This document shows positions 12,813 through 31,610 of a DNA stretch of 64,000 nucleotides, in pieces. Position numbers and translations under genes: made by a program. Origin of the DNA: an uncultured Erysipelotrichaceae bacterium (GTDB lineage: Bacteria; Bacillota_I; Bacilli_A; RFN20; CAG-826). The notes below the pieces were generated by a model. The model was not told the origin of the DNA. It ran no database searches and saw only the letters and a program-made list of their open reading frames with translations. Position 1 is the first letter of the stretch, and the number at the start of each line of letters is the position of its first letter. Location of the stretch: assembly GCA_902787955.1 (NCBI GenBank), contig CADAIJ010000010.1, forward strand, positions 1,942-65,941. Reading direction: 5' to 3'.

Positions 12813-12819
12813 TTGTCTA

Positions 12820-12853: not shown

Positions 12854-12878
12854 ATATTTTTTTATTTATATAAAAATC

Positions 12879-15744: not shown

Positions 15745-15768
15745 AAAAAAGCCACCCTTACGGATGGC
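15745..15768 (-). terminator. intrinsic terminator ending the riboswitch-3 operon
   Basis: Minus-strand hairpin GCCAUCC-GUAA-GGGUGGC followed by UUUUUU, immediately after the stop of gene 15797-18883. Confidence 0.7.
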
Positions 15769-15796: not shown

Positions 15797-18700
15797 CTAT
15801 TTGTTTTGTCTAAGGGCTTCGATAAATGTTGATTTATCAAGTGGCTTATAGAAGTGATAACCTTGTAAGGCGATATCTTTAGAAATATCTCTAAGTAAGG
15901 CGTATTGATCACTATTTTCAACACCAACGAGGGCGACTTTAACACCGCGAGATAAGGCGACATCAGCGAGGTCTTTAATGGTTTGATATTTATTCTTATC
16001 TGTATCGATACCATTAACGAGATAACGGCCAATCTTAATCTCACTAAAGCCAAGTTCTTTTAAGACATCAACAGAGAGGAATGAACCACTGTATTGGTCA
16101 CAAATAAGAGCAATTCTTTGATGCAAGGATTTAGATAGTTTCTTAAATTCGTCTAAGTGGTCAAAGACTTCTTTTTCCGTAATTTCAAAACCCAGGAATT
16201 CTTTTGGGAAGTGATAGGTATTAATTAAGGAATAGATTGTTTCAAAGAAGTTTGGATCAGAGAAATAAGAGAAGTCGGTGTTAATAGTTAAACGATGGAA
16301 ACCATAAACCTTAAACGCGGTTAAACCAAATTGTTGATATAAATTACCAATATATTCAATTAAGGCGTTAGAAATAAGGGAGATCTTACCATTTTCCGCG
16401 GCAACCTTAACAAGTTCATCAGCGTTAAAGACAATCTTTCGATAATCATCAGCGATACGTAAGAGTAACTCAGCACCAAAGATGGCTTTGGTTCCTGCTT
16501 TAACCATTGGTTGAAGTAAGACAGAGAAGGTCTTATTACCAAATTGATCATCGATAACAGAGAGCATAAATCTCTTACGAGAGGCACTTCTAGAGTAATC
16601 ACTATCAGCGAAGTAGATGAAGTCTTTATTAGAAGCGTAGTTACCGCTATCTTTGAATTTCCAAGCAAACTTAATAAATTCTTCCGCTGTAGAGTAGCCC
16701 ATTGGATATGGGATTGGTAAATAAGTGATATTAAAGCTATTATGAGTTTCGTTATAGATATAATCTTCTTTAGAAGCTTCATAAATAGATTCAATAATAT
16801 TAACGACGTTAGCTTGACCAACTTCAGGAAGTAGGATAGCCACTGTATAGTTAGAGAAATGGAAGATATTATCTCTTCTAATGCCTTTCTCTTTAAGTCT
16901 TTGTAAGAAGCCTCTTTCTAAGAAGAGAGCGCCTTCGCTACCATATTTAGTTATTAATTCTTCTAAGTTATCAATATTAAGAAGTAATAAATATCCATGG
17001 GAGTTAACTTTATAGTAGTTACCCATTGAAATAACTAATGAAAGATAAGAGTTAATAAGTAAGTCACGGTCAAAACGATCTTCCACCGCTTCATTATTTT
17101 CAAGTAAACGAATGAACATTCTTCTTAAATAAGTGTTCTTAACGTTAACGGATAGAGATGTTTCGATACGTGAACCACTTTCGATTTCACTAACTTTCTT
17201 CTTTTCAGTTAGAATTGGACAATCTTTACATGGTGCATCTAAACCATATAAAACTTTGTAGCACTTCTCGCCCCACTTAATATTTGGGAATAAAGTAGGC
17301 ATATGTTGAGAGAAAGATGTTAGTTCATAAGATTCTGGGTTAACTCTATATAACGCGGTATTAGACGCTTGCAAGGTGGAGTTAATCTCTAAGAATGTTT
17401 CACTAAAGGTCATCTCTCTTTGGATATTTAAGATATATTCGCCTAAACGAGAAGTAACAACATATAAAGCTTCTCTAATATATGAATTGATACGGAGTTC
17501 ACGGCCATTTTCATTAAAGAAATAACACATACCCATGAGTTTTCCGCGGTCTAAAATCATATTATAGAAGCCACTTGTGATATTAATTTTGTCTAAGATT
17601 CTCGCTAAAGAAGGGTTAGTGTGCTTTCTTGTGGAGAAATAATATGAACCATCTTCTTCACGAACTTCACTAAAGACTTTTAGAATTTCATATTCAACGA
17701 TTTTGCCACGGTCAAAGTAGGTATTATTACCGTTTTCAACATGGATTATAGAATCATAACCTCTATGTCTATTTGAAATCGAAACAATACCAGCGCAGTC
17801 GATATTTAAGTGTTTAGCGAGTAATTTAAAGGTTGTTTCAATCTTCTCTAAGTTACTTTCATGATCCGCGACACTTAATGGCAAATCATGAAGACATTTT
17901 AAAATCTTAGTCATGACATTAAGTGACATTGAAGATTGAAGTATCTTTGAATTAGCGGTGTCAGAAAGACGATTTGGAATATAGAAGTTAATGACTTTAC
18001 CTTGACGTTTTGCGTATCGAAGGTCACTAAAGATTTCATTAACATCACTATATGGATAAGCGACTAAAGAGAATCTAGCGGGAATAGTAACTAAGCCATC
18101 ATATGTTTTCTTTGAGATGGATAAAGTTTTCATTAATGTGAAGAGTTGTTCATGAAGACAAGAAAGGGTATCAAAGTTTGGTAAATAAACATATATTCCC
18201 TTCTTTTCATCATCATTAATGATATAAAGGACATTTTCATATTCCTTAAATAAACTGATTGCATAAGAAATAACACGGTTAGTTTCTTCCTTAGTTAAGG
18301 TATCATGATCCATTTGATAATAGATTTCGATAACCGCGTTTCTAAAAGCCTGCGCAGAATTAATGATCGGAACTAAGTTTTCTTTAAATGATTCTAAGGA
18401 AACAATGTTTCTTTCTTTATCTAAGAAATCTAGTGGGATATTTTTATAACCATTAGAGAAATTAAGGAATTCAGTATCGTGAAGTTGAACTTTTAATTCA
18501 TCAATCGCTTTATTTAGTTCATCTACTTCATTAATTGATACAAAGTTAGAAGTGTATTTTTCAAGACTTTTAGAGGAATTAGTTAAGTTCTTATAGTTTT
18601 CTTTAGTGACGGAATAGATTCCACGATAGAAAACTTCAAGAGCGATTTTCACTCCAAAATAGACTGTTAAGCCGAACAAAACAAATAAAACCGAAATAAC

Positions 18701-18883
18701 ACTAATTAAGACAACTAATAGAATAGTGTTTGGTTCTTTTAAGTAGAAGAAAGTAAGTGGAACCCCTACTGCAAAGATAGTAATTAAAACGACAAAAGGA
18801 ATAGCTACCCCGAGGACCGCGGCAACTTTAAGAGATATTGGCTTCTTAAAAAGAAGGTTATTATGTTCTTGCTTATTAGACAT
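15797..18883 (-). CDS. membrane protein with degenerate GGDEF and degenerate EAL domains; candidate c-di-GMP receptor/scaffold
   Basis: Start at ATG 18883 (MSNKQ...) with AAGGAGGAG SD. 2-3 N-terminal TM helices. GGDEF-like region with the active site replaced (..HFSNYTVAILLPE). C-terminal EAL fold with LLQPMV, AELLLR, CDQYSGSF (in place of DDFGTGYSS), KIGRYL, VGVE. Confidence 0.6.
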   Translation of the reverse strand: MSNKQEHNNLLFKKPISLKVAAVLGVAIPFVVLITIFAVGVPLTFFYLKEPNTILLVVLISVISVLFVLFGLTVYFGVKIALEVFYRGIYSVTKENYKNLTNSSKSLEKYTSNFVSINEVDELNKAIDELKVQLHDTEFLNFSNGYKNIPLDFLDKERNIVSLESFKENLVPIINSAQAFRNAVIEIYYQMDHDTLTKEETNRVISYAISLFKEYENVLYIINDDEKKGIYVYLPNFDTLSCLHEQLFTLMKTLSISKKTYDGLVTIPARFSLVAYPYSDVNEIFSDLRYAKRQGKVINFYIPNRLSDTANSKILQSSMSLNVMTKILKCLHDLPLSVADHESNLEKIETTFKLLAKHLNIDCAGIVSISNRHRGYDSIIHVENGNNTYFDRGKIVEYEILKVFSEVREEDGSYYFSTRKHTNPSLARILDKINITSGFYNMILDRGKLMGMCYFFNENGRELRINSYIREALYVVTSRLGEYILNIQREMTFSETFLEINSTLQASNTALYRVNPESYELTSFSQHMPTLFPNIKWGEKCYKVLYGLDAPCKDCPILTEKKKVSEIESGSRIETSLSVNVKNTYLRRMFIRLLENNEAVEDRFDRDLLINSYLSLVISMGNYYKVNSHGYLLLLNIDNLEELITKYGSEGALFLERGFLQRLKEKGIRRDNIFHFSNYTVAILLPEVGQANVVNIIESIYEASKEDYIYNETHNSFNITYLPIPYPMGYSTAEEFIKFAWKFKDSGNYASNKDFIYFADSDYSRSASRKRFMLSVIDDQFGNKTFSVLLQPMVKAGTKAIFGAELLLRIADDYRKIVFNADELVKVAAENGKISLISNALIEYIGNLYQQFGLTAFKVYGFHRLTINTDFSYFSDPNFFETIYSLINTYHFPKEFLGFEITEKEVFDHLDEFKKLSKSLHQRIALICDQYSGSFLSVDVLKELGFSEIKIGRYLVNGIDTDKNKYQTIKDLADVALSRGVKVALVGVENSDQYALLRDISKDIALQGYHFYKPLDKSTFIEALRQNK

Positions 18884-19622
18884 TTTCTCCTCCTTTAATA
18901 ACGTCATTATGAGAAATCTCACCAATGCAGGTAACAATAGCTTTACCTACAGAGGAGAACTCTTGTAAGACTTTAATATAACTATCTGTGGTTGCTGGAG
19001 TGTTTAACACTCTTTCAACAACCTTAACTGTAACAAATGGAACTTTATTGATATAGGCTGAGATACAAACCCCAACAGAAGTACAGTCAAAAACTAAATT
19101 GTTTTTATGACCAAACATATATCCACCCGTTTCAATGTTAGCAATTTTATTAGATGTATCGATAATTGTGTTAGAAGATATAAAACTAGCGATTTTATAT
19201 TTAGAGAATGATCTTTTTTCAATAGAAGATGCGACTAATTTCATAATTTCTTCTTCTGATTTAAAGTTAGGTGGAAAGCCAGGAAGTTGACCTAAACGGA
19301 CATTAGCCTCTCTTATTTGGTCAACGTCTCCAGCGATAACTCGTTTTGATATGGCTATTTCACCAGGTTTAAAGTCATCGTTAAAAGCGACACATTTACC
19401 TACCACAAAGATTAAAAGAACGAAGTATTTCTCAATTAAATAGTTTGTAAGCATCGCAGAGATATAAGAAGTATAAACATCATAAACAAGTAAGACTTCT
19501 TGGTTAAAAATCTTACCAATTTGAACTTTATAGTTATTCATTACTACTTCTTCTCGACGGTCAGTCATGACACTTTCGAAATATAAAACGTCATCATGAA
19601 CGCTACCAAGAATCATAATCAT
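18876..19622 (-). CDS. PNP/UDP phosphorylase-superfamily protein (MTA/SAH nucleosidase-like)
   Basis: MIMILGSVHDDV...VGKCVAFNDDFKPGEIAI...ETGGYMFGH resembles MtnN (MKIGIIGAMEEEV...TGSAGGL..GDVVI...ATGDSF). Divergent; assignment tentative. Confidence 0.4.
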   Translation of the reverse strand: MIMILGSVHDDVLYFESVMTDRREEVVMNNYKVQIGKIFNQEVLLVYDVYTSYISAMLTNYLIEKYFVLLIFVVGKCVAFNDDFKPGEIAISKRVIAGDVDQIREANVRLGQLPGFPPNFKSEEEIMKLVASSIEKRSFSKYKIASFISSNTIIDTSNKIANIETGGYMFGHKNNLVFDCTSVGVCISAYINKVPFVTVKVVERVLNTPATTDSYIKVLQEFSSVGKAIVTCIGEISHNDVIKGGENV

Positions 19623-19624
19623 AA

Positions 19625-21166
19625 TTAACGTTTACCCTCCTTTCTTTCAAATGGATTAGAAATAAGGAATTTCTCGTATTCTGCTTTTGGAATTGGACGA
19701 GAATAATAGAAACCTTGAATTGTATCGCATTTCGCTTTCTTTAAGACTTCAACTTGATCTTTATTATCAACACCTTCAGCGATAACTTCGAGTTCGTTAG
19801 CTTGGCAAAGTTCGATTAAGAATTTAACAATCGCACTAGCTTTCTTATCGGATTCAATGTTATCAATAAAGGATTTATCAATTTTAACCGCATCAAATGG
19901 CATCTTTCTTAAGTTACCAATGTTGGAGAAACCGACACCGAAGTCATCCATTAAAACACGAATGCCATGGTCTCTAAGTTTACGAATAACAGAACTTGCC
20001 ATAAAGGTATTAGTTTGAGAAGTTGATTCGGTAATTTCAATTTCAATTAAGGATGGGTTGATATCGTGTTTTTCAATCGTGGAGATAACTGAATCAAGGA
20101 AGTTCATCGAGTAGAATTCATGTAAAGAGAAGTTAATTGATACAGGAAGCACTCTTCTACCTTTTCTTTTAGCTTCATTTAAATCTTCACAAACACGGTT
20201 AAACACATAAGTATCAATGCTATGGATTAAACCAGCGTTTTCAGCGATAAAAATGAATTTAGAAGGTTCTAATAAACCGTGTGTTGGAGAATTCCATCTA
20301 ACAAGAGCTTCACTAGAAACAAATCTTTTCGCGGTTAAAGAGAATTTAGGCTGATAATAAACAACAAATTCATTGTTGGTTAAGGCTTTAGTAATTTCAT
20401 CAATTTCGGATTTAGAGGAATGCTTACGGAAAGATTCATGATAGAAAGTTAAAGATTCGAAGTTTCTTTCACTAACATCACGAGCGATAGAAGCATTTTC
20501 AATATCCTCGATTAATGGAGATTCATAGTTAACTTCGGTAACACCAAAGAATGGTTGAACCCAGACATGTAAATCTTCATCCTCGGCGATTCTAAATAAA
20601 TCATTAGAAATAGCGTTAACTAGGTTTTTAATATGGTCATCTTCATCAGAAACAGTGTACACATAGAATAAACCCTTGTTATACGCGAAGGCACTATCAC
20701 GATGGAGTAAACCTTTATCTTTATCAAAATAAGAAGTTAAGAAGTCCGCTATTTTGGCAGAGAAACTAATAATAGATTCATCGTGAGAAGTGTTCTCCAT
20801 GACTGATTGGTTCGCCGCGGAGAAGATAGTAATATATTGTTTTTTCTTACGGTTTAAGAACGATTTTTTAAGAAGAGACACTCTAACTTCAAAAGACGCT
20901 AAGTTAAAGAATGTTGTCTTTTTACCTAAGGCGTATAAGTTTTCATTTTCAAGGTTAATCTTCTTTTGAGTTTCTTGAGTAAATCTCATGAAGAAGAACA
21001 TTGCTGCGGAAATAACAGCAGGAACAAGAATAATTAATAAAATAGCAATAGCAGGATGTTCCTTAAGCATGCCATTAAGTTCAAAAATGAATGAAAGAAC
21101 AAAGCCAGCAAGGAAAATGGTGCCTGTTGTTATAAATAATGCAAGATATCTTCTACGTAGGTTCAT
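19625..21166 (-). CDS. membrane-anchored c-di-GMP phosphodiesterase (2 TM + degenerate GGDEF-like + EAL)
   Basis: EAL domain with YYQP, EALVRW, DDFGVGFSN, KIDKSF, EGVD and QGFYYSRP motifs all intact. Start overlaps the stop of the upstream SipW gene. Confidence 0.75.
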   Translation of the reverse strand: MNLRRRYLALFITTGTIFLAGFVLSFIFELNGMLKEHPAIAILLIILVPAVISAAMFFFMRFTQETQKKINLENENLYALGKKTTFFNLASFEVRVSLLKKSFLNRKKKQYITIFSAANQSVMENTSHDESIISFSAKIADFLTSYFDKDKGLLHRDSAFAYNKGLFYVYTVSDEDDHIKNLVNAISNDLFRIAEDEDLHVWVQPFFGVTEVNYESPLIEDIENASIARDVSERNFESLTFYHESFRKHSSKSEIDEITKALTNNEFVVYYQPKFSLTAKRFVSSEALVRWNSPTHGLLEPSKFIFIAENAGLIHSIDTYVFNRVCEDLNEAKRKGRRVLPVSINFSLHEFYSMNFLDSVISTIEKHDINPSLIEIEITESTSQTNTFMASSVIRKLRDHGIRVLMDDFGVGFSNIGNLRKMPFDAVKIDKSFIDNIESDKKASAIVKFLIELCQANELEVIAEGVDNKDQVEVLKKAKCDTIQGFYYSRPIPKAEYEKFLISNPFERKEGKR

Positions 21167-22098
21167 TATTTGCCGCCTTTCTTTTTCATCATTTCATCTA
21201 ATAATTCTTGTTTGAGTTTCTTTTTCTCTTCTTCACTGAAGCCATCTAATGAACTTGAATCAGATCCTCCTGGCTTTTTATCGCCTTTTGGATTATCTCC
21301 TCCACTAGCGCCTTCTTCAGGTTCTTTAACCGCCTTAAATATATCTAAGACAGAAGTGACAATAAGATATGAAGCTGGAATTAAGAGTAAAACAATTAAA
21401 CCCCAAGGAGTTGTAATGAAATACAAAAGTCCACCTAAAACAGGACTATTTAATATTACCACACCAAAGAGTTCTTTTTCGGTGAAAGTTTGATATTGAC
21501 CGAATTGGGATTTATAGCCTTCTTTATTAGTGCCAGAGGTAAAGAAGATATATCTTCCTTCGCCAAGAGGCTTAGATTCATCAATTTGAATTTCTCTTAA
21601 ACGGTGGGTCATTGGATAATTAGTTGGTGAAGTTGGATCACTTGGACCAATTTCCTTATCCCATTTAGTAATTCCGCCAGTAGTAGGAACATATGGGTAT
21701 CTTTGGTTATCGAAGAAAGTCAAATCAATAGTTTCTTCTTTTAAATACATTTGATAGATAGTTTCACAATCGTGTTTATGAGTAACAATTGCGGTATTTA
21801 CACCATATTCAGGAAGCATGGAATCAGTTTCAATAAGGAATGTTGAATAACCAAAGGCAACATTGCGGCCATAGTTTTCACCGCGATGAATCATTCCATC
21901 AATAACAAAAACACCAGCAAACACAAATACTGCGGCAAAGAAACCAGTAATAACCCATTCGATTATACGACGGGCTTTCGATTTTGGTTTCTTCTCTTTT
22001 TTATCAGTAGAGTCTTGAGGTTTAGCTTCATTATTAGCTTCACTTTCAGTAGCAGGTTTTTCTTCTACTGGAGTTTCTGTTTTCTTTTCTTCATCCAT
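21166..22098 (-). CDS. sipW: SipW-type (archaeal/ER-type, family S26B) signal peptidase I with long charged N- and C-terminal extensions
   Basis: TM helix; Ser box ..LIETDSMLPE (cf. SipW VLSGSMEP); His box MTHRLREIQI...FFTSGTNKEG (cf. SipW VTHRIVDIT...FKTKGDNN); C-terminal TM LGGLLYFITTPWGLIVLLLIP. ~50-aa acidic/K-rich N-tail and ~60-aa G/S/D/K-rich C-tail, which the ~190-aa B. subtilis SipW lacks. Confidence 0.7.
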   Translation of the reverse strand: MDEEKKTETPVEEKPATESEANNEAKPQDSTDKKEKKPKSKARRIIEWVITGFFAAVFVFAGVFVIDGMIHRGENYGRNVAFGYSTFLIETDSMLPEYGVNTAIVTHKHDCETIYQMYLKEETIDLTFFDNQRYPYVPTTGGITKWDKEIGPSDPTSPTNYPMTHRLREIQIDESKPLGEGRYIFFTSGTNKEGYKSQFGQYQTFTEKELFGVVILNSPVLGGLLYFITTPWGLIVLLLIPASYLIVTSVLDIFKAVKEPEEGASGGDNPKGDKKPGGSDSSSLDGFSEEEKKKLKQELLDEMMKKKGGK

Positions 22099-22100
22099 AG

Positions 22101-23795
22101 TTATTCAGCTTCCCCTCCTTCCTCTTTCTTTTCTTCATCTAAAAGTTTTTCAGAACCATCCTCATCGTTTTGTTCTTCGGATTCATCTTCTACACTTTGT
22201 TCTTCGGAATCTTTATTTTCTTCTAAAGACTCTTCATCCTCTTCAGATTCTTCAGCAGGAATTTCTTCATCTTCTTCCGCAGGAGTTTCTTCATTTTCAT
22301 CAGCTGAAAGTTCTTCAATAGGTTCTTCAACTACTTCATTTTCTTCAGTTAAAGGCTCAGAAGTCGCTTCGATTGGACTATTTGTCTCATCCACAGGAGT
22401 TTCTGCAGGTTTTTCTTCAATAACTGGTTCTTCAGGAATATCAAATTCATCAGTCTTAGCAGTATCGATAAGTTTTTGTCTTTCTTCTTCGATACGTTGT
22501 TGTTCGGCAAGACGAATATCTTCAAGACGTTTACGTTCAGCCTCAGCTTCTTCTTTTTGTCTTTTAGCGATAATATTTTGTACTTTCTTTTCCCAAGCTT
22601 TTTGTTCTTTTTCTTTACGCTTGGCGAGCTTCTCTTTTTCAGATTGTTCTTCTTTATTCTTTTTCTTTTGTTCTATCTCTTCTTTGTAGTATTCTTTTTC
22701 GAGTTTAGTTGGACGGACTGGGAGATCTTCTTTAACTAAAGAATTAAGATATTGTTGATATGCTTCATCAACACGAACATATTCCACTGGTCCTTTTAAA
22801 AGCTCATCATAGATGAATGGCTCATCGTCAAGAGATTTAAGAAGTTTTGGTTTATATACTCTATTTTTAGCTTTGAGTTTGTTCTTTTTGTCTTTAGATT
22901 TAAGCGCTAAATAGTTGGCAAACATTACCATATTGAGCTCTTTAAGTTCTTTTTCATTATAATTAAAGACATCTTCATTAACTTTATAAGCAACTCCTAA
23001 GTTTTCATAACGTTGAATGAAGTTAAATAATTCATAACATTTATGATATTTTGGGTTCTTTCTTAAGATGTTAGTCATAACGATAGGAGCACGAACATCG
23101 TGATCGGTCTTCATCGTTCTCATGAAGTTAGAGTTATAGTAATAAAGCACATATTCTCTAATATTTTTAATTCTTTCGATATATGAGTTAGATGATTGAG
23201 CAACCGCGTTTTCAGCGTTAGAACGAACTTTGACTTTGGTTTCTACTTCAACTTCTTCACCACCGATAATGGCTTTAGATTTGTAATATAAAATTTCTTC
23301 ATCGTGTAAAGGAGCGAAACCTTTAACGAATTCATAACGTTTTTCAACGAAAATAACTAATCTTCTAACAAGTGTAGCGATAAATCTATTTTCGTAAGTA
23401 TGAATATCAGTTTCGTTAGCGATATTTAAAATTTTAGAAGGAATAACTTGTCCACGTTCATCAACAGTTTTGATGTATTGAGTGTGGCTTGCTAAATGTC
23501 GAACTGATTCAGCGTTTGTTTTTCTAGCTAATTCAACAGGAACTAAATTAGCAACTGAAGCGGTAACTTCACGAGGATTAGTAATAATATCACCTAAGTC
23601 AAATAAGCAGTCTTCAATCTTTTTAATCCAGCTTAAGTCGAAGGAAGAGGATTCAACTCTATCCATTCTCATATAGGAATTTTGGCCTTCAGAAAGATGT
23701 GTCAAAGCTTCACGAGCGGTTTCGTCAGTGAAGAGTGATTTTGTCTTGGTGATATATCTACCAAAGAGTTTTTTGTTACGATTACGAACTGCCAT
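22101..23795 (-). CDS. hypothetical protein: ~330-aa globular N-domain + ~230-aa E/K/D-rich coiled-coil and acidic tail; possible partner of the adjacent McrB-like GTPase
   Basis: Tightly coupled downstream of the McrB-family gene (12-nt gap). The C-terminal half is a low-complexity EEQ/KEE/EEDEE repeat. I could not see a PD-(D/E)xK nuclease motif. Confidence 0.4.
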   Translation of the reverse strand: MAVRNRNKKLFGRYITKTKSLFTDETAREALTHLSEGQNSYMRMDRVESSSFDLSWIKKIEDCLFDLGDIITNPREVTASVANLVPVELARKTNAESVRHLASHTQYIKTVDERGQVIPSKILNIANETDIHTYENRFIATLVRRLVIFVEKRYEFVKGFAPLHDEEILYYKSKAIIGGEEVEVETKVKVRSNAENAVAQSSNSYIERIKNIREYVLYYYNSNFMRTMKTDHDVRAPIVMTNILRKNPKYHKCYELFNFIQRYENLGVAYKVNEDVFNYNEKELKELNMVMFANYLALKSKDKKNKLKAKNRVYKPKLLKSLDDEPFIYDELLKGPVEYVRVDEAYQQYLNSLVKEDLPVRPTKLEKEYYKEEIEQKKKNKEEQSEKEKLAKRKEKEQKAWEKKVQNIIAKRQKEEAEAERKRLEDIRLAEQQRIEEERQKLIDTAKTDEFDIPEEPVIEEKPAETPVDETNSPIEATSEPLTEENEVVEEPIEELSADENEETPAEEDEEIPAEESEEDEESLEENKDSEEQSVEDESEEQNDEDGSEKLLDEEKKEEGGEAE

Positions 23796-23807
23796 TTAGA
23801 CCTCTAA

Positions 23808-25325
23808 TTAGATTGATTTAAGTAAGTTTTGAATATAGGCGTGAGCCATTGGGAAAGTATTCTTTCCGTATAATTTATCGAGTTGAACTTCGAGTTCTTT
23901 AAGTTCGTCTTTTAAGAAAGCGATATTTAAAGATTCGAATTTCTTTAAGATTTTGTTTGTAAAGATAAAGTCAAAGCCATCGGTTTCTTTACCACCTGTC
24001 GCAACAAAGACTGGGATAAAGGTATCGAGTTGTTTTAAGATACGGTTACCAAAGGCGAGTTTGAATTTTTTAATGACGAAGTTATCAAGAGTTTCAAATT
24101 TCTTAAGCATAGCTTCGGAAATTGGATAGTTAGAAACAGCTTCATCATACAATGATTTGATTTGAGCGTATGGAACAGAAATAGCTTCTTGGTTTTCTGC
24201 TTCAAATGGACGGCCTTTATCATCAAAGAATAAGGAAACCGCACGGTCATAGACCTTATCAGAAATTGTATAGGTACTATCATCGTTGTTCGCAGTGCCA
24301 AAGAAGATGATGTTTTGTGGAATTAATAACTTACCATCTTTGAGGTTCTTTGGATCCCCTGCCATTGGAGATGGAATTAAGTCGATTAACCAGTCAGCTG
24401 GATCTCTCATTTCCATGACGGATAAGAATTCAGCAAAGTAGTATTCAATACGTGCTAAGTTCATTTCATCGAGGACGATAACGTTTAAGTCTTTACGGTA
24501 AGTAGAAACATATAATGCTCTTAAGAATTCAGATTCATTGAACTTCTTAGTGAATTCGTTATAGTAACCGATAAGTTCAGATCTATCTTTCCAAGATGGT
24601 TGAACTGGAATGATAGAGGAGTCAAAACTAAAGAATTTACCTAAAGCATAGGCCATGGAAGTTTTACCTGTACCAGAGATACCTTCTAAGATAATTAGCT
24701 TAGAAGTGGCCATACCTGCAAATAATTGTCTAATTGTTTCAATTTTATAGTAAAGATGTAATTGGCTTGCCGCATAATTTCTAAAAGCGTTACATAATTC
24801 TTCAAGTGATAAGCCTTCTTTATATGGAACAGACATATCAACACCGTTATAGGAATTATCAACACGGACAAGTTTTGGGAAACGAGATGTAACTTCTTCG
24901 ACAACTTCTTGGTCTTGTTTAGACATTTCACCAGGTTTAACGCCCATATAAGCAGTCTTTAAGTTGAGGATTTTATCTTTTTCTTGAACAGCTTGATAGA
25001 GTTCAAATGATAATCTTTCAACTTGACGATAGAGTTCATCTTTTTCAAGTTCTCTTTTATAGAATTTGACGTATTTACGGATTAAAAGATATAAGCCAAA
25101 TCCAATACCTCCAATTAAACCGATAAATAAGAGGAGGAAAAGAATCCAGAAGAACCAGAACCAGAAATCTGGTGGATTGGAATAATGTTCAAGTAACGAA
25201 TTATAGTAATTGAAGTTAGCAGGAACATCCGCCCACGGGGAAGCGAAGGCTTTGTTAAAGAAAGTGCCTAGATCGCTAAAAAATCTGATTAATAATTCTC
25301 TTAAGTATTCAAAGTATGCACTCAT
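23808..25325 (-). CDS. membrane-anchored McrB-family AAA+ GTPase (AAA_5)
   Basis: Walker A GISGTGKTSMAYALGKF; Walker B VIVLDEMNLARIEYYFAEFLSVMEMRD (cf. McrB FIIDEINRANLSKVFGEVMMLMEH); NxxD motif FFGTANNDDST (cf. McrB GLMNTADRS). Unusual N-terminal TM segment FWFWFFWILFLLLFIGLIGGIGFGLYLLI. Confidence 0.65.
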   Translation of the reverse strand: MSAYFEYLRELLIRFFSDLGTFFNKAFASPWADVPANFNYYNSLLEHYSNPPDFWFWFFWILFLLLFIGLIGGIGFGLYLLIRKYVKFYKRELEKDELYRQVERLSFELYQAVQEKDKILNLKTAYMGVKPGEMSKQDQEVVEEVTSRFPKLVRVDNSYNGVDMSVPYKEGLSLEELCNAFRNYAASQLHLYYKIETIRQLFAGMATSKLIILEGISGTGKTSMAYALGKFFSFDSSIIPVQPSWKDRSELIGYYNEFTKKFNESEFLRALYVSTYRKDLNVIVLDEMNLARIEYYFAEFLSVMEMRDPADWLIDLIPSPMAGDPKNLKDGKLLIPQNIIFFGTANNDDSTYTISDKVYDRAVSLFFDDKGRPFEAENQEAISVPYAQIKSLYDEAVSNYPISEAMLKKFETLDNFVIKKFKLAFGNRILKQLDTFIPVFVATGGKETDGFDFIFTNKILKKFESLNIAFLKDELKELEVQLDKLYGKNTFPMAHAYIQNLLKSI

Positions 25326-25328: not shown

Positions 25329-26480
25329 TTACATCTCCCTTAATATCTTAAATTCAATTTGAGCAAGGAACTTTGCTCCCATAGTTGTATTAATACAATA
25401 TAAATCCCAGCCTTCTAAGTATATAGAAAGCACGAATTTAGATGGTACATTTCGATAAACTGGAATAACGATTCCATCATCTAAATCGAATACATTTGTT
25501 TTGTCATAAGCCTTCTCAGTTTTGATAGATAAGCCACCTTCTTGAACAGCTTTATCATAATCAAATGGATGAGCATATTCATGTGAACTCGCGGTAAAAG
25601 CAGAAAATTTGCTATTTGGAGGTAAAATTGTACCAGTTCCGACTTCACCATAATATGAATCTGAGAAACGTTCATTTAAAACTTCACCATAAATAGTTTC
25701 ATAACGGCTGCTATTTTTAGTAAAGGTGTCATAGTAAGAATCTTTATCAATATCAAGTCTACCACCTAATAAAGTTGGTTTTGTTTTAGCAGTTTTGTTT
25801 GGATTATAAATATAGTAGTTATAATCATCACCGTTATTGACAAGGATTGAGATTCTCATCGCATTCGCTAAATTGTTTAAGCATTCATAGATATCATCTT
25901 CTTCGTAGCCACGGAATCCAACATCTTTAGATTCAAATAATTCGTGAGCAATTCTTCTATTCTCATCTATATCTGGAAGAATGGAGGTAGTTTCAGGATT
26001 GATGCTGACGTAAACGTCATCATCAGCGATTAAATAAAGATCTTGAGAATAGTAATTATTTAAGTAATCTCTTAAGTTATGATCTTCGTCATAAACTTTA
26101 TTAGATACTTCCTCTAAACGTGGTTCTTCTTCAAATGATAAAGCAGTTTGATATTCATAGAATTTTGGTTCTTCCGCTCTATCAGCGATTGGAGCAGTTT
26201 TATCAAACCATTTTGACTCATACATGGAAGAAACTGGAGAGAAGATTCTAGTGTGTTTTAATTCATTATCTTTAAGTTCGTTTTTAGTGTAACTTTCGAT
26301 GTCATCGATATCTTTGGTGGTTGAGATTCTTAAATCTCTAGTGGCTTTCATCTCAATATCAATCGTGTCTACATAGGCGCGCGATGAAGAAGCAAACCAA
26401 GCAACTGATACAGATAAAGAAATCGTCGCAAGTGAAATAACTGCTACTAAAGTAGAGATAAATGCGCGACGAATATTCAT
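25329..26480 (-). CDS. SipW-cognate secreted protein, TasA/camelysin-like paralog
   Basis: N-terminus MNIRRAFISTLVAVISLATISLSVSVAWFASSS; C-terminus ..SIYLEGWDLYC...AKFLAQIEFKI. Confidence 0.55.
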   Translation of the reverse strand: MNIRRAFISTLVAVISLATISLSVSVAWFASSSRAYVDTIDIEMKATRDLRISTTKDIDDIESYTKNELKDNELKHTRIFSPVSSMYESKWFDKTAPIADRAEEPKFYEYQTALSFEEEPRLEEVSNKVYDEDHNLRDYLNNYYSQDLYLIADDDVYVSINPETTSILPDIDENRRIAHELFESKDVGFRGYEEDDIYECLNNLANAMRISILVNNGDDYNYYIYNPNKTAKTKPTLLGGRLDIDKDSYYDTFTKNSSRYETIYGEVLNERFSDSYYGEVGTGTILPPNSKFSAFTASSHEYAHPFDYDKAVQEGGLSIKTEKAYDKTNVFDLDDGIVIPVYRNVPSKFVLSIYLEGWDLYCINTTMGAKFLAQIEFKILREM

Positions 26481-26482
26481 AA

Positions 26483-27586
26483 TTAATCAACTCTATTAAT
26501 TTGGAAAGTTAATCCAAGATTAAATTTGTGAGAAATCTCCTCATTAACAACATGGTGGTCCCAACCTTCAATGTAAATGGTTAATGTAGCTTCTCCTAAC
26601 GCACTTACAGTGTTCGCGGTTGTACAAATTTGTTTACCACCACTTAATACACCAGTACCATCATCAATAGGCTTGATGGAATTTAAAGTTTCATAATCTG
26701 CTTCAAGTGGACTTAAAGCATCCATGCTATCGTACCCATATACGCCTGGGAAATGTTTGCCAACAAAAGTTGATGGATCAGTATTACCAACTCCATTGAC
26801 ATCAACAAAATCACTCTCAGTTGCATAATATGTTCTAGCAGCACTTGGATTTGTGACATGGCCATAAACGATTTCGTTATCAGAATCATCATGATCGTAG
26901 AAACCATCATCATTAAGGTCTAAAAGACCCCCTACAGCATTGGAGGCAGCCCCTCCTTCTGCGGATGGATTGAAGATATACTTTGTATCTCCGTTCACAT
27001 GTACACGAATAGATTTATAAATCTCGCCATCGGTAAGGATATTCTTTGGATTTGCATCCGCGCCAGAAATCCAAACCTTTTGGTTTCTCGCATAGTAATT
27101 TGGAGATTCTGAAACTTCGTTAGTTCTAATGATTCTAAACACAAACGGAATCTGCACATATTGATTCTTTGTAGCAATATTATCGTTTTGTGCATGGCCT
27201 GCAATTAAGCATTCGGTCAATGATAAAGTATCACCATAGTGATATTCATTTGATGAAACTGGTCTTAATTCATTAGTGGCATAGCCAGAGAGTTCAAGAT
27301 ACCCGTTAATGGCGTCGGAATCGAGACCTTTACCAGGCTGAGCCCAAGCATACGAAACAGCATCTATAACTTCGGTAGTTAAACCGTAGCTAGATAGATT
27401 TTTGTCTGTTTTGATACCTATTTGTAATTGCTCACCAACAGTGACAGATGTTCCAGAATAGGACATTGTCGCTTTAGTGACGTAATTGAACCATGAAATG
27501 GATCCAGCGATAGAACCTAAGAAGGTGAACATAGTCGCTGCAATCAAAGTCGTGGTTAATAGGCCCGCTTTTCTTGAACTCTTCAT
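26483..27586 (-). CDS. SipW-cognate secreted protein, TasA/camelysin-like paralog
   Basis: N-terminus ..FLGSIAGSISWFNYVTKATMSYSGTSV; C-terminus ..TIYIEGWDHHV..HKFNLGLTFQI. Close paralog of 27699-28670. Confidence 0.55.
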   Translation of the reverse strand: MKSSRKAGLLTTTLIAATMFTFLGSIAGSISWFNYVTKATMSYSGTSVTVGEQLQIGIKTDKNLSSYGLTTEVIDAVSYAWAQPGKGLDSDAINGYLELSGYATNELRPVSSNEYHYGDTLSLTECLIAGHAQNDNIATKNQYVQIPFVFRIIRTNEVSESPNYYARNQKVWISGADANPKNILTDGEIYKSIRVHVNGDTKYIFNPSAEGGAASNAVGGLLDLNDDGFYDHDDSDNEIVYGHVTNPSAARTYYATESDFVDVNGVGNTDPSTFVGKHFPGVYGYDSMDALSPLEADYETLNSIKPIDDGTGVLSGGKQICTTANTVSALGEATLTIYIEGWDHHVVNEEISHKFNLGLTFQINRVD

Positions 27587-27698
27587 TAGCTATTTCCTTT
27601 TTAAAATACGTTTAAAGTAAATAATATTTAATAATTAAAGATTTTATATAAATATAATTAAGACGAATAAATGTAGTATTTACAATACTAAGTTATTG

Positions 27699-28670
27699 TT
27701 ATGCGTGGTCGACGTGAGGTTTAACAGCAAATCTCATACCAACTTGGAAGTCGTGGATATATTTAGAGACATCCCAAATAGATTTAGCTGGAGTACCTAA
27801 TTCTGCCCAACCTTCTAACCAAATGGTAACTGTGAACTTTAAAGCTTGGTTATTACCTTTAGTGTTAGTTTGACCTAAAGCAGTTTTACCATCAACACTG
27901 AAGTCTGCAACAGAATCATCAACATCAAAAGAACTTAACTTTCCAGCAACTTGGGTTAAAGTATCATCGCCATATTTTGTAGCAACTGTTTCGTCCCATT
28001 CATAACCTGTAGACTTATCATTAGCTGTATCGTTATTTAAATCTAAATAACCACCTAATGTAGTTGTGACATCATCAGTATGGGTAGTAATTAAGTTACC
28101 AGTTGTACCATTAGTAATATGGAATCTTAAACCTTTAGCAAAGTCGGCAGCTTGAACACCAGCGCCAGCATAACCTGCACCAGTCTTAGCGTTAGCAGCA
28201 ACTGTTAAGTCAGCAAGATAGACATCCTTTTCAAGGAATTTTTCTTCAGCCGCACCATTAATGTCTTTAACTCTAAGATAGACATCATATTGTAAATAAG
28301 CAGCATTATCAGCAGCCATCCAAGTAGAATAATTAAAATATTGATAAATTGGGTTGCCTTTGAATGATGCTGGAGCGGTTGCTAAATTCTTAGCACGTGC
28401 TGCACCTTCGGTGACAGGTTGTAATTTCATACCTGTATGTGTATCGGCGGCAGCGATAATTTGAGCGCTAGTTAAATCAGAATACCAGTTAGTGCCATCA
28501 AGGCTTATTTGAAGAGCTTCAGTACAGTGAACAGAAGTTCCCATATAAGACATTGTGGCTCTGGTAGAATATTGGTACCATGCGACAGATCCTGAAAGGG
28601 AACCGACTAAACCTGCTCCCGCGAGAAGACCTAACGCACCAACAATGAGTTTTTTATTATTAGTTTTCAT
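27699..28670 (-). CDS. SipW-cognate TasA-like protein, Ala/Gly/Thr-rich (candidate major structural subunit)
   Basis: N-terminus MKTNNKKLIVGALGLLAGAGLVGSLSGSVAWYQYSTRATMSYMGTSV; C-terminus TIWLEGWAELG...HDFQVGMRFAV. Higher GC and Ala-rich composition than its neighbours. Followed by a hairpin + U-rich attenuator in the 112-nt gap. Confidence 0.55.
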   Translation of the reverse strand: MKTNNKKLIVGALGLLAGAGLVGSLSGSVAWYQYSTRATMSYMGTSVHCTEALQISLDGTNWYSDLTSAQIIAAADTHTGMKLQPVTEGAARAKNLATAPASFKGNPIYQYFNYSTWMAADNAAYLQYDVYLRVKDINGAAEEKFLEKDVYLADLTVAANAKTGAGYAGAGVQAADFAKGLRFHITNGTTGNLITTHTDDVTTTLGGYLDLNNDTANDKSTGYEWDETVATKYGDDTLTQVAGKLSSFDVDDSVADFSVDGKTALGQTNTKGNNQALKFTVTIWLEGWAELGTPAKSIWDVSKYIHDFQVGMRFAVKPHVDHA

Positions 28671-29490
28671 AAGCGTTTATTTCAACTCCTAATTTCATGT
28701 TTGCACCTTCTGGTGCTTCGAGACTTGAATTTGATTGAGGGTCTTCACCTTCAACCCAAGTCACGATTGTGTAACGTTTCATATCACCTGCATTGAAATT
28801 AGAAACTGGAATAGTAGCGATCGTAGTGTCATTTTCGAACTCTTCTGCAAATCCAGGGAATGGGTTAGCAGCGTCCGCTTTTGATAAAGGAATAGAAATA
28901 TACTCTTTTTGAGTAGGGTTTCCATCCTCATCATAGTTAATGCCTTCACTTCGTTTTGCGTACACGGTGTAATCGTGATCAGTGGAAATGCCATCATTTT
29001 CATAGATCATAACTCTAACAAGGTTATCAATGTATCTTCCATCTTTAGATGGTTTGTTTTCAGTGATATTAACCTTAAAGTCATATCTACAAGTAGAGTT
29101 TCCTACGTTTTTAAGGAAGAATGTGTACTTAAAGAAATCCATAGAGACGACTTCTTTGTTCTTTGAATCATAGTTAGCACCATAAAGGTAATCATAACTA
29201 TCATTGTCGATACGAGATTCGTCTTCTCTGATTTTCTCAAAAGTGTATTCCTCGTATGTCTTAATCTCACCAACGTGTAAATAAGATGTAGGATTACTGA
29301 AAGATGATTTTTCACTTAAAGCGATCTGAACACCCCCAGTTCCTAAAGTAACTGTGAATGTACCTGTGTATTGACCAAGAAAAGCGACTATCGCTAATGA
29401 AGTTACTCCACCTGCGCCAACAAGTGCAATAATAGCGGCAGCCTTTTTTCTTCGGTGCTTTTTCGCATACTCAATTTCTAGTTCTTTCAT
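28660..29490 (-). CDS. SipW-cognate secreted protein, TasA/camelysin-like; first gene of the riboswitch-3 operon
   Basis: N-terminus KKHRRKKAAAIIALVGAGGVTSLAIVAFLGQYTG; C-terminus IVTWVEGEDPQS...ANMKLGVEINAYEN. No obvious SD before the ATG. Confidence 0.5.
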   Translation of the reverse strand: MKELEIEYAKKHRRKKAAAIIALVGAGGVTSLAIVAFLGQYTGTFTVTLGTGGVQIALSEKSSFSNPTSYLHVGEIKTYEEYTFEKIREDESRIDNDSYDYLYGANYDSKNKEVVSMDFFKYTFFLKNVGNSTCRYDFKVNITENKPSKDGRYIDNLVRVMIYENDGISTDHDYTVYAKRSEGINYDEDGNPTQKEYISIPLSKADAANPFPGFAEEFENDTTIATIPVSNFNAGDMKRYTIVTWVEGEDPQSNSSLEAPEGANMKLGVEINAYEN

Positions 29491-29543
29491 AGATGATAAT
29501 AGTGTTGCTCAAATAGCTTGAGCTAAATGTCCCAAAGGAAGGA

Positions 29544-29606
29544 AATAAAAACCAGTTGCCTATCATCCAATCAATTGGCGGAATATTTCATCCTTTAAGG
29601 CAACTG
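29544..29606 (-). terminator. riboswitch-controlled terminator (alternative to aptamer P1)
   Basis: Minus RNA: CCAGUUGCC (the aptamer's conserved 3' element) pairs perfectly with downstream GGCAACUGG (9 bp), followed by UUUUUAUUU. Confidence 0.65.
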
Positions 29607-29668
29607 GCTATCTTTTTCAAGACCCTATAGCTTTGCGACCCCATATCTCTATGAGTGTGCTTTTATCT
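29598..29668 (-). promoter_or_regulatory. c-di-GMP-I (GEMM) riboswitch aptamer
   Basis: Minus RNA: AAAAGCACACU-CAUAGAGAUAUG-GGGUCGCAAAGCUAUAGGGUCUUGAAAAAGAUAGCCAGUUGCCUU. GNRA (GAGA) hairpin, UCGCAAAGC, GGGUC...GAU, GCCAGUUGCC. The first element is a variant (GCACAC instead of GCAAACC). Confidence 0.75.
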
Positions 29669-29675
29669 CGCTTAC

Positions 29676-29703
29676 ATTATACACACCCCAAAACAAGATG
29701 CAA
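29676..29703 (-). promoter_or_regulatory. promoter TTGCAT-N16-tgTATAAT (extended -10)
   Basis: -35 TTGCAT = rc of 29698-29703; TGTGTATAAT = rc of 29676-29685. The TSS falls just 5' of the aptamer. Confidence 0.45.
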
Positions 29704-29749
29704 ATATTTTTTTAAAAACTTTTTTTCTCAATAATATGTAATCTTTATA

Positions 29750-29780
29750 AATAAAAAATAGGACTTTCGACCTATTCCTT
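29750..29780 (-). terminator. intrinsic terminator (bidirectional) after the small membrane protein gene
   Basis: AAUAGG-ucgaaagu-CCUAUU hairpin followed by UUUUUUAUUU on the minus strand, with an A-run on the other side. The stop codon lies inside the stem. Confidence 0.65.
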
Positions 29781-30143
29781 ATTTTCTTCGTTTTGGAGAT
29801 CCTTGAGAAGTTCTTTTCTGAGAGCTTCTTTTTGTTCTTCACTAAGATCTGCAACTTTTGGAGTTTCTCTTTTAGCAGACTTTCTGACATAGATTACTAA
29901 ACCGATGATATTGACTGCTAGAAGAACGAATAATGGAAGAACAAATACAAGACCGTAGAATGTTGGATTATTTTGGAGGAATCCAATTAATCCATCTGCT
30001 TCTCTAACATCTGCAGGACCCTTACCTATTGTGGAAGCAAGCATAATTATAGAGATAACTAATAAGAATATAGTTAAACCAACATCTAAGGCAATGCCTA
30101 TAAGAAGTAATATTTTCTTACCAGTTAGTTTTTTAAGTTCCAT
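29772..30143 (-). CDS. small membrane protein (2 TM, K/E-rich C-terminal tail), hypothetical
   Basis: MELKKLTGKKILLLIGIALDVGLTIFLLVISIIMLA...GLVFVLPLFVLLAVNIIGLVIYV then a charged tail. Confidence 0.5.
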   Translation of the reverse strand: MELKKLTGKKILLLIGIALDVGLTIFLLVISIIMLASTIGKGPADVREADGLIGFLQNNPTFYGLVFVLPLFVLLAVNIIGLVIYVRKSAKRETPKVADLSEEQKEALRKELLKDLQNEENKE

Positions 30144-30256
30144 AAAAATAAATCCCCAGGAGAGAAATCCTAGGGATATATTGTAACATATTTATTCTTA
30201 AATCAAGAAATATTTACGCTTGATTAATCAAGAATTTATGCGAGATTTGAAGATAA

Positions 30257-31444
30257 CTATGCAGCGTTTGGAATATTGATGGCTTCAAAGGATAAGTAAG
30301 AAACCATTGTATCGTAAATGGTGTCAATAGTATTGACGATATTATCATCAGTACCTTCAAACCATGCAACAACAGTGTATTGTAAGGATACAATAGTTCC
30401 AGCTTGTGCTTTATCAAAGTAGCCAAGGAATAATGGAGAACCTGTATATGTGGTTCTAACTTCGCCTGTTAAGCTTTCTGGATTGGTAGCATTAGTGCTA
30501 TCAATAAGAGCAGGAGCTACATAAGAAGCAGTTTTACCATCGGTTGCAAATGCACCATTGACTGCAGCGGCTCCAACTACGTGTTTAGCAAGATGTTCGC
30601 CGCTGATTGGTCTGAAATCAGACCAGACACGTGTTTCGGCATGAGAATTTGTGCCAACAAATGCAAGGCGGAAACCTAAACCGGTATCAACACGATATGG
30701 GTTTTTAACATAAACATCAACAGCTTCACCTGATGCACCTCTTGCTTCAACATATGTGGTACAAGCAGCGGTTGTATAGTAAGTACTTGCAGGAATAGCT
30801 GTATTTTCTGGGATTTGGAACGCATAAGATAAAGCAGTACTTCTGGTAAAAGCAGTTTTAGCAGAAGTTTCTACAAAACCAGCTTCAATAGCTGTGGTAC
30901 ATTTTTCATCAGAATAGAAAATGCCAGTGCCAACAGCAAAGCCAACTGGAAGTGTAACTTTCTTAGCCATAATTGCTTCATTAGCTTTGAAGAAGAGACC
31001 AACGTCTTTTGCAGCAGCGCTAGAAAGAGCTAATTTGAAATTCATTGTAAATGTAAAAGCGGAATAGATTTCTTCATTTGTGTCTCTTTTGAGACCATTA
31101 GCGCCAGTAGTCATATCAGCATCTTCTAATGCAACTTTTTTGCCGACTTTATCGCCATCAGCATTTGGTGCAAAGATGTAATGATCTTCAGTAATGTGAT
31201 CAAAAGAAGCGTCAGTTAAAACTTTGCCACTATCAACAGAAACAATATTGGATTCAACATCTGTTCCAAGGCCTTTGCCCATTTCACAAACGAGGTTATC
31301 TTTAGTATTAACAACTGCGAATTCACCAACAGTTGTATTGAATAATCTGTTAGCAGTGAACCATGCAACGGTACCAGTAACGGAAGCCGCTGTGGAAAGT
31401 AATAAGACTGCTAAAGCAGGTACTATAATTTTTGATTTTTTCAT
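30257..31444 (-). CDS. SipW-cognate TasA-like protein, Ala/Thr/Gly-rich; candidate major fibre subunit with its own strong promoter
   Basis: N-terminus MKKSKIIVPALAVLLLSTAASVTGTVAWFTANRLFNTTVGEF; C-terminus ..YTVVAWFEGTDDN...MVSYLSFEAINI (cf. TasA KLQFSFEATQ). AAGGAG SD. Confidence 0.55.
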   Translation of the reverse strand: MKKSKIIVPALAVLLLSTAASVTGTVAWFTANRLFNTTVGEFAVVNTKDNLVCEMGKGLGTDVESNIVSVDSGKVLTDASFDHITEDHYIFAPNADGDKVGKKVALEDADMTTGANGLKRDTNEEIYSAFTFTMNFKLALSSAAAKDVGLFFKANEAIMAKKVTLPVGFAVGTGIFYSDEKCTTAIEAGFVETSAKTAFTRSTALSYAFQIPENTAIPASTYYTTAACTTYVEARGASGEAVDVYVKNPYRVDTGLGFRLAFVGTNSHAETRVWSDFRPISGEHLAKHVVGAAAVNGAFATDGKTASYVAPALIDSTNATNPESLTGEVRTTYTGSPLFLGYFDKAQAGTIVSLQYTVVAWFEGTDDNIVNTIDTIYDTMVSYLSFEAINIPNAA

Positions 31445-31580: not shown

Positions 31581-31610
31581 ATTATATTAAGTTTCTTTTT
31601 TTCTTGTCAA
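31581..31610 (-). promoter_or_regulatory. consensus sigma70 promoter TTGACA-N18-TATAAT with ~130-nt structured 5'UTR
   Basis: rc of 31605-31610 = TTGACA; rc of 31581-31586 = TATAAT. The 5'UTR contains three GCAAAG repeats and a long-range complementarity CGACAAAG / UUUUGUCG. Confidence 0.5.

Follow-up and report, generated by a model that had tools for sequence, protein, structure and literature searches.

The 64-kb window analysed here (contig CADAIJ010000010.1 of assembly GCA_902787955.1, from an uncultured Erysipelotrichaceae bacterium; all coordinates are those of this stretch) contains a row of minus-strand genes, among them a pair encoding a McrB-like GTPase of 505 amino acids (aa) and a partner protein of 564 aa. 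Motif and profile analyses identify the 505-aa protein as a McrB-family AAA+ GTPase of the NxD type placed behind a single predicted transmembrane (TM) helix, and the partner family as one that bears the McrC N-terminal domain (DUF2357) with no detected nuclease. Across hundreds of species, this pair is fixed beside SipW-type signal peptidases and paralogous secreted proteins. On balance we favour the explanation that the two proteins are a nuclease-less, membrane-tethered descendant of McrBC, of the type named CoCoPALM, which makes TasA-like fibres with one or more SipW-type peptidases under the control of cyclic di-GMP (c-di-GMP) and does not serve restriction. The pair would then probably function as a GTP-driven module for fibre assembly or processing.

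A membrane-anchored McrB-type GTPase and its DUF2357 partner

The features of the gene pair are as follows.

25325-23808, minus strand: McrB-like GTPase, 505 aa (open reading frame, ORF)
25074..25175, minus strand: predicted TM helix of the GTPase, residues 51-84, PPDFWFWFFWILFLLLFIGLIGGIGFGLYLLIRK (hydropathy 2.55 and charge count)
23946..24758, minus strand: AAA+ GTPase domain, residues ~190-460 (aligned to E. coli McrB residues 176-429)
24660-24683, minus strand: Walker A motif GISGTGKT, residues 215-222
24459-24470, minus strand: Walker B motif LDEMN, residues 285-289
24282-24290, minus strand: sensor motif N-x-D in the stretch GTANNDDST
23795-22101, minus strand: GTPase partner, 564 aa (ORF)
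22704..23795, minus strand: conserved N-domain of the partner, residues 1-364 (family alignment and AlphaFold2 (AF2) model with a predicted local distance difference test score (pLDDT) of 77)
23313-23765, minus strand: DUF2357-type McrC N-terminal domain, ~residues 11-161 (Pfam matches of family members)
22461..22703, minus strand: K/E-rich helical, coiled-coil-like stretch of the partner, residues 365-445 (26% E, 22% K)
22101..22460, minus strand: acidic low-complexity tail of the partner, residues 446-564, net charge -50, length-variable (composition and strain lengths)

Both ORFs lie exactly where a preliminary description of this region, made from the sequence, had placed them (22101-25325). 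That description regarded the two genes as translationally coupled; instead, they do not overlap and are separated by a gap of 12 nt, which holds an AGAGG ribosome-binding site. The flanking genes on each side of the pair are 2-3 nt away.

The GTPase consists of ~50 N-terminal residues, one TM helix, a charged juxtamembrane helix and the AAA+ GTPase domain. The very hydrophobic, W/F-rich membrane segment, already noticed in the preliminary description at the start of the protein, proved to be a single one at residues 51-84. No K or R residues are present in the 15 residues before this segment and four follow it, so the C-terminal GTPase domain should be cytoplasmic and the ~50 N-terminal residues are predicted to be extracellular. 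A DNA-binding domain was not matched in this protein in Pfam or NCBIfam searches, its N-terminus being made up of the 50-aa segment and the TM helix.

Comparison of a profile of close homologues with E. coli McrB (residues 176-429) using hhalign gave a probability of 95.6% (E 1.2e-8). The Pfam model AAA_5 remained just under its cutoff with the window protein (E 2.8e-4) and matched 24 of 39 diverged relatives. In the alignment of these 39 proteins, residues G215, G218, G220, K221, D286, N289, N346, D348, S350 and T351 are invariant, and D349 is variable (D, E, Q, G or A) where N346 and D348 are not. The sensor motif was readable in 124 of the best 150 GTPase relatives; all 124 of these diverged sequences have N-x-D, followed by D (72%), E (24%) or Q/G/A (4%). 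Because the first D is invariant and the next residue varies, the family motif reads as NxD(D/E), which, by motif, fits the "NxD" clade of McrB proteins. Exactly such variation after NxD is described for this clade in the relevant text of Bell et al. 2024 (PMC11090510). Thus, the McrB identity and the McrB/AAA_5 Walker B motif named in the preliminary description hold, whereas its NxxD sensor does not: the stretch GTANNDDST can literally be read both ways, and the family is of the NxD type.

When 1.8 billion cluster representatives were searched exhaustively, the GTPase proved to have 8432 relatives, including 730 with E < 1e-30. The best 120 clusters share 72-98% identity with it and nearly all are 504-511 aa long. 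The relatives show three architectures: the type found in the window (about 450-530 aa, with 1-2 N-terminal TM helices in the same place), proteins of about 560-840 aa with 4-5 TM helices, and TM-free proteins of about 700-870 aa with a long N-terminus.

The partner family yielded 275 matches. Residues 1-364 form its well-conserved part, and aligned family members share 47-70% identity with the window protein. The Pfam DUF2357 model scored above its cutoff in 9 of 43 family members (26-34 bits against 23.3; best E 2.3e-8), and these nine homologues are 47-62% identical to the window protein. The AF2 model has a long beta-hairpin at residues 164-193. The partner had been described as not recognisably McrC-like, with a comparison of its N-domain to DUF2357 proposed as a check; that comparison now points to a McrC-like N-domain, and the accompanying statement that no PD-(D/E)xK motif is visible stands. 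Searches of Pfam, NCBIfam, PADLOC and PDB sequences gave neither a nuclease nor any other match for the window partner, the predicted secondary structure past residue 230 contains one strand element, and the sole acidic cluster that is conserved (D323, D324, E325) falls where the model is unstructured and of low confidence. On these grounds we conclude that no nuclease is detectable in the partner. A PvuII match in the PDB sequence search (E 0.34) was dismissed as weak, and phmmer searches of both proteins as well as profile searches of the partner and of the secreted-protein families described below against PDB sequences returned nothing useful.

Separately, a near-invariant D-D-E-x-F-x-Y motif was observed at 22815-22835 (partner residues 321-327, SLDDEPF), inside a segment (residues 318-338) with pLDDT below 50 that is predicted to be unstructured; it may represent a short linear binding motif.

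The last 230 aa of the partner contain 30% E, 11% K and 7% D (net charge -49) and are encoded by DNA with 44% A and 60 GAA codons, as expected from the acidic tail and GAA-rich DNA of the preliminary description. The tail has two parts. The K/E-rich stretch (residues 365-445), with a predicted helix at residues 371-399, can be aligned across the family, and the acidic stretch behind it (residues 446-564) is rich in E, D, P and S and includes imperfect 24- and 27-nt repeats at 22157-22317. Among strains with N-domains at least 98% identical, indels in the acidic part give partner lengths between 535 and 573 aa, which answers the earlier question about the length stability of this repeat: it is variable. 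Across related loci the partner measures 369-2247 aa, again differing through the tail (2247 aa in locus L015, 369-1313 aa in the others). Some homologues (P0193, P0207, P0228 and P0185) end in a small conserved domain, GRFIVKTxxGYYV...A.VFxDFxxA...GGKVIKL (alignment columns ~700-790); the window protein has its acidic tail there instead.

Conserved operon with SipW-type peptidases, secreted proteins and a c-di-GMP riboswitch

The distribution of the GTPase was scanned using one genome per species, and at least 596 species-level genomes carry a relative. They include metagenome-assembled genomes of rumen and gut "Bacilli"/Erysipelotrichaceae, Acholeplasma granularum ATCC 19168, Izemoplasmatales and Anaeroplasma, as well as the Clostridia Ruminococcus sp. 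FC2018, Oscillospiraceae and Lachnospiraceae; A. granularum ATCC 19168 and Ruminococcus sp. FC2018 are cultured. Hidden Markov models (HMMs) built from the window proteins were applied to 80 loci, and the denominators given here are the loci with enough sequence. In 58 of 60 loci the gene for the DUF2357 partner comes immediately after that for the GTPase; the pair has one or more SipW-like peptidases beside it in every locus (53/53), and secreted proteins of the T family (see below) are encoded within 9 kb of it in 50 of 53. In distant lineages the common gene order is T-T-T, peptidase, GTPase, partner, peptidase. Co-occurrence of McrB-like with TasA-like genes had been proposed as a check of the preliminary description; the association with SipW-type peptidases and secreted subunits extends over Bacilli, the Acholeplasma/Izemoplasma lineages and Clostridia.

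On shared contigs, the GTPase shows 83% and 77% identity, the partner 71% and 61%, and a subunit about 42% and 28%, a gradient of the kind expected for machinery as compared with exposed subunits. In two Tenericutes/Acholeplasmataceae loci (L037 and L078), the GTPase gene is followed by a T-family gene and genes for two ~220-aa proteins in the place of the partner. Four loci (L007, L011, L020 and L043) present the Bacillota-type operon in records labelled Bacteroides uniformis, Hallerella sp. or Bacteroidales, which are probably mis-binned.

The genes and RNA elements that accompany the pair in the window are listed below.

21166..22098, minus strand: SipW-type signal peptidase I, 310 aa (motifs, TM helices, BLASTP)
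25329..29490, minus strand: four paralogous secreted "T" proteins of 276, 323, 367 and 383 aa, putative fibre subunits (ORFs, signal peptides)
29596..29671, minus strand: c-di-GMP-I riboswitch aptamer (Rfam RF01051, 54.9 bits against a cutoff of 35)
29543..29609, minus strand: terminator hairpin with a 12-bp stem and U-tract (fold energy -22.9 kcal/mol, z-score -4.29)
29676..29704, minus strand: promoter-like site TTTGCA-17-TATAAT directly upstream of the riboswitch (10/12 positions, a consensus match)

The window peptidase is predicted to start with a cytoplasmic K-rich tail and to cross the membrane twice, its catalytic ectodomain lying between the two TM helices and a K/E-rich cytoplasmic tail coming after the second, C-terminal one. 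Its catalytic boxes are SMLP (Ser box, residue 93) and HRL (His box, residue 165). A partial match to NF046067 (E 6.6e-5) is weak by itself. BLASTP aligned the protein to a SipW-like protein from Ruminococcus with E 7e-9 across both boxes and with the same topology, and that protein in turn reaches 125 bits with the SipW model. The peptidases beside the pair in Acholeplasma (L064) and Ruminococcus (L068) pass TIGR02228 (57-108 bits, cutoff 51.85), match the SipW model and likewise end in a K/E-rich cytoplasmic tail behind a C-terminal TM helix. Two such peptidase genes flank the pair in most lineages (L064:9265-9948 and 13324-13914; also L068, L046 and L075), and the clade of the window retains the downstream copy alone.

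The signal peptide of each of the four T proteins ends in a G-[ST]-x-A-W-[FY]-type motif. HMMs of the five T paralogues nearest the pair (these four and T395, listed below) retrieve largely the same ORFs from related loci, 165-201 each. The AF2 model of the 323-aa protein (T323) is beta-rich (pLDDT 80, predicted TM-score 0.77), and its top match in the PDB is the TasA fibre 8aur_A, at a non-significant level (E 0.15, probability 0.47, TM-score 0.40). The most conserved segment of T323 (A30, W31 and Q33-R37) comes after the signal peptide and has no ordered structure in the model of the monomer, which fits a donor strand as in fibres of the TasA/BsaA type (PMC11580942).

Within the operon, the riboswitch separates the gene for a small 123-aa membrane protein from the four T genes that come before the GTPase. 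Its aptamer shares sequence, in the 3' strand, with the 5' arm of the terminator hairpin, which reads as the expression platform of the riboswitch. Since ligand binding should then block termination, high c-di-GMP should turn the operon on. Of 12 related loci that were scanned, 9 have the same riboswitch in the same position, upstream of the GTPase on the operon strand; they extend from the clade of the window to Acholeplasma and some Clostridia. Two more c-di-GMP-I riboswitches occur in the window. The one at 12742-12821 (minus strand) stands before a sixth T-family gene (11838-~12700), behind which come genes for proteins of 514, 1047 and 1597 aa, the last with BspA-type leucine-rich repeats; the corresponding ORF (11838-12854) starts upstream of its riboswitch, so the true start is probably further downstream. 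The other, at 180-260 (plus strand), precedes a gene for a GGDEF protein (339-1814).

The remaining features of the operon are the following.

30257..31444, minus strand: T395, the first T-family gene, 395 aa (ORF)
30152-30177: terminator-like hairpin after T395
31581-31610: perfect match to a sigma-70-like promoter before T395
29772..30143, minus strand: small protein of 123 aa with two TM helices and a K/E-rich cytoplasmic tail (ORF, TM helices; position kept in the clade of the window)
15797..21166, minus strand: distal genes for an EAL phosphodiesterase (513 aa), a PNP_UDP_1-family protein (248 aa) and a degenerate-GGDEF/EAL protein (1046 aa) (Pfam)
15751-15768: terminator-like hairpin at the distal end of the operon

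T395 is possibly the major subunit. The 123-aa protein was considered as a remnant of SipW, having shared a set of HMM hits with the peptidase; pairwise comparison revealed no similarity between the two, and the merging of their hits is probably compositional. The three distal proteins gave Pfam matches to EAL (2e-69), PNP_UDP_1 (3e-10) and EAL (1e-33), respectively. Their genes come after the peptidase throughout the clade of the window, with the same order on a 1.15-Mb contig of a relative, and the PNP_UDP_1-family (nucleoside phosphorylase-like) gene is located at 18876-19622 (minus strand) between the two EAL-domain genes. On the other side, a divergent gene (31708-33648, plus strand) adjoins the promoter region of the operon; its 646-aa product spans the membrane several times and has a Wzy_C domain (O-antigen ligase-like).

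Relation to known systems and alternative explanations

The CoCoPALM class was named by Bell et al. 2024 (eLife 13:RP94800, PMC11090510) in one paragraph of a survey of McrBC systems, as an uncharacterised group whose details were deferred to a future paper. We found no follow-up paper. Three of the four features given in that paragraph are recognisable here by motif, architecture and context, so that the window pair fits this class: an NxD-type McrB GTPase with an N-terminal TM segment and a charged helix; a McrC homologue with DUF2357 and a coiled-coil-like extension (the window copy is below the DUF2357 threshold and 9 of 43 family members pass it); and a tight association with genes of the signal peptidase family in Bacillota. 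For the fourth, an FtsB-like TM and coiled-coil domain, a TM helix (residues 51-84) and a charged helical linker are present, but no DivIC/FtsB match was obtained with Pfam in 39 relatives. The idea of an exapted motor is not new, having been published as a hypothesis in the same survey. The CoCoPALM paragraph makes no mention of a c-di-GMP-I riboswitch, of twin flanking peptidases with K/E-rich tails, of paralogous TasA-like subunits or of a strain-variable acidic tail. To the class, the present analysis adds control by a c-di-GMP riboswitch, twin SipW peptidases with tails, a predicted GTPase topology, the strain-variable acidic tail and two cultured carriers.

Like E. coli McrBC, the pair comprises a McrB-family AAA+ GTPase (Walker A and B, sensor Asn) encoded directly upstream of a DUF2357-bearing partner. 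However, E. coli McrB has an N-terminal DNA-binding domain and an NxxD sensor where the window protein has a TM anchor and NxD, McrC has a PD-(D/E)xK nuclease where the partner has a long charged tail and no detected nuclease, and a restriction-modification context is replaced by a surface-fibre operon. Judged by its domains, the pair therefore shares the AAA+ GTPase with McrBC restriction systems and lacks their DNA-binding and nuclease domains. CoCoNuT and PDC-M26 systems have a GTPase of the same NxD-type branch, coiled-coil-type extensions and a McrC nuclease that is often missing. The TM-free, long-N-terminus relatives (700-870 aa) form a separate architectural group among the homologues of the window GTPase, and the window partner matches none of the PADLOC models for PDC-M26 partners. 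No literature on PDC-M26 was found.

The tapA-sipW-tasA operon of Bacillus subtilis and the sipW-bsaA-bsaB-bsaC operon of Clostridium perfringens also encode a SipW-type (archaeal/endoplasmic reticulum-type) peptidase together with several paralogous secreted subunits (PMC11580942), and the best structural match of T323, as noted above, is a TasA fibre (E 0.15). The same source describes these operons without a nucleoside triphosphatase (NTPase). They differ from the window operon further in that the T subunits match no TasA, camelysin or SipW-cognate HMM, that the peptidases here have long cytoplasmic tails, and that most lineages have two of them. In a literature search joining SipW, TasA and McrB, the last appeared solely in an E. 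coli strain genotype. By analogy, the operon resembles type IV pilus and type II secretion systems in combining a membrane NTPase ring (hexameric, by extrapolation from McrBC, in the present case) with a dedicated leader peptidase and paralogous subunits with N-terminal hydrophobic segments. There is no homology between the parts: the GTPase is McrB-type and not PilB, the peptidase SipW-type and not PilD, and the subunits beta-rich and not pilin-fold. Type IV pilus genes in Clostridia can also be under the control of c-di-GMP riboswitches.

Several observations weigh against a GTP-driven fibre module of the CoCoPALM type. The TasA-likeness of the T proteins is likely but not established, as it rests on a non-significant top match; TasA, camelysin and SipW-cognate HMMs from Pfam and NCBIfam matched neither the T proteins of the window nor those of Acholeplasma, Ruminococcus and others, and no matches to PDB sequences were obtained. 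The window partner itself has no Pfam match to DUF2357, a Foldseek search of its elongated model against the PDB returned no McrC and nothing with E < 0.1, and hhalign of the partner family against E. coli McrC (a single-sequence template) gave nothing. FtsB homology has been published for CoCoPALM GTPases, yet none of the 39 GTPase relatives matched DivIC/FtsB in Pfam, and heptad periodicity in the charged helical linker is weak. The partner is missing from L037 (9980-13626) and L078 (5873-9530), and the riboswitch from 3 of the 12 related loci scanned. The TasA fibres of B. subtilis are not known to require an NTPase of this kind for their assembly, so the need for a motor is not obvious. 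Mechanical coupling of GTP hydrolysis to assembly is a conjecture.

In the main rival explanation, the GTPase is a regulatory switch or checkpoint that senses or gates SipW, or signals the status of the fibre through the coiled-coil tails, with GTP hydrolysis as a timer. This seems to us improbable, though it deserves to be taken seriously. The conserved gene context suits it as well as it suits an assembly module, the cytoplasmic K/E-rich tails of the peptidases could bind cytoplasmic partners, the operon is rich in signalling parts (EAL, GGDEF, riboswitch), and B. subtilis TasA is not known to need a motor; the C-terminus of B. subtilis SipW has also been reported to be regulatory. Against a switch, neither protein has an output domain such as a helix-turn-helix or kinase in Pfam or NCBIfam, and McrB-type rings are processive machines driven by nucleoside triphosphates (NTPs) in every characterised case (PMC6624300). 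That the GTPase is the most conserved gene of the operon suits a core machine and a switch alike. A role in membrane remodelling or at the division site, where an FtsB-like TM and coiled-coil anchor would direct the GTPase to the septum or the cell poles, perhaps so that fibre export is localised or the membrane of wall-less cells is shaped, is less likely than a regulatory one and appears rather remote. It draws on the FtsB homology of the N-terminal domain reported in the CoCoPALM paragraph of Bell et al. and on the many Acholeplasma-, Izemoplasma- or Anaeroplasma-like carriers; apart from the negative DivIC/FtsB result given above, no division genes occur in the neighbourhood, and walled Clostridia carry the same module.

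The preliminary description had offered, next to an exapted McrBC-like motor for fibre assembly or export, a defence module hitch-hiking in the operon. The GTPase core, taken alone, does match the PADLOC candidate-defence model PDC-M26A (E 7.9e-39), a result that also counts against a fibre module, and the closest characterised relative of the protein is a restriction enzyme. In addition, the operon includes a PNP_UDP_1-family gene, a fold used by some defence effectors. However, an anti-phage or anti-plasmid module (McrBC-, CoCoNuT- or PDC-M26-like) sitting in or captured by a surface-protein operon is in our judgement very improbable, because neither a nuclease nor another effector domain was detected in the partner, a TM anchor occupies the place of a DNA-binding domain in the GTPase, the arrangement of the pair with peptidases and subunits has stayed fixed in Bacilli, Mollicutes-like lineages and Clostridia, the GTPase is strongly conserved in sequence and length (defence genes are usually patchy), and a transcription unit with a c-di-GMP riboswitch is common to the pair and the subunit genes. 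The partner also matches no PADLOC model. The combination named at the outset as telling against an exapted motor, a McrC nuclease in a pair occurring apart from SipW or TasA-like genes, was not encountered: no nuclease was found, and a SipW-like gene was present in 53/53 loci. The exapted motor is instead supported by the co-occurrence, the lack of a detected nuclease and the variable tail.

Proposed mechanism and implications

In the GTP-driven fibre module that we favour, the GTPase would form a hexameric ring on the cytoplasmic face of the membrane, tethered by six TM helices, as extrapolated from McrBC. McrC inserts asymmetrically into the McrB hexamer and activates its GTP hydrolysis (PMC6624300); by the same extrapolation, a stalk formed by the DUF2357 domain of the partner would insert into the ring and stimulate hydrolysis. 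More speculatively, the partner, the GTPase linker and the peptidase tails might be joined by their K/E-rich helices into one membrane platform, and GTP hydrolysis might be coupled through the TM helices to the processing, release or polymerisation of subunits outside the cell, in loose analogy to the ATPase-driven platform of type IV pili.

Taken together, and as a tentative proposal that we regard as less probable than its central element, a McrB/McrC-derived ring may power a distinct and widespread fibre machine of Bacillota and their wall-less relatives. In this machine, GTP hydrolysis, transmitted through TM helices and coiled-coil tails to twin SipW peptidases, would drive the processing and donor-strand polymerisation of TasA-like subunits, and c-di-GMP would turn on the whole unit by way of the riboswitch.

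McrBC is a textbook restriction enzyme, and TasA-type fibres are thought to assemble without energy input. If the proposal is correct, a third NTP-driven route to surface filaments, derived from a restriction enzyme, would exist beside type IV pili and flagella/archaella. A McrBC form without a nuclease, anchored in the membrane and fixed in the fibre operons of at least 596 species-level genomes, would clearly exemplify how a defence motor can be taken over for building the cell surface. Gut and rumen Bacilli, Acholeplasma-like lineages and Clostridia make up many of these carriers, and an obligatory GTPase would alter the picture of TasA-type assembly without energy input for a large group of gut bacteria that are poorly studied.

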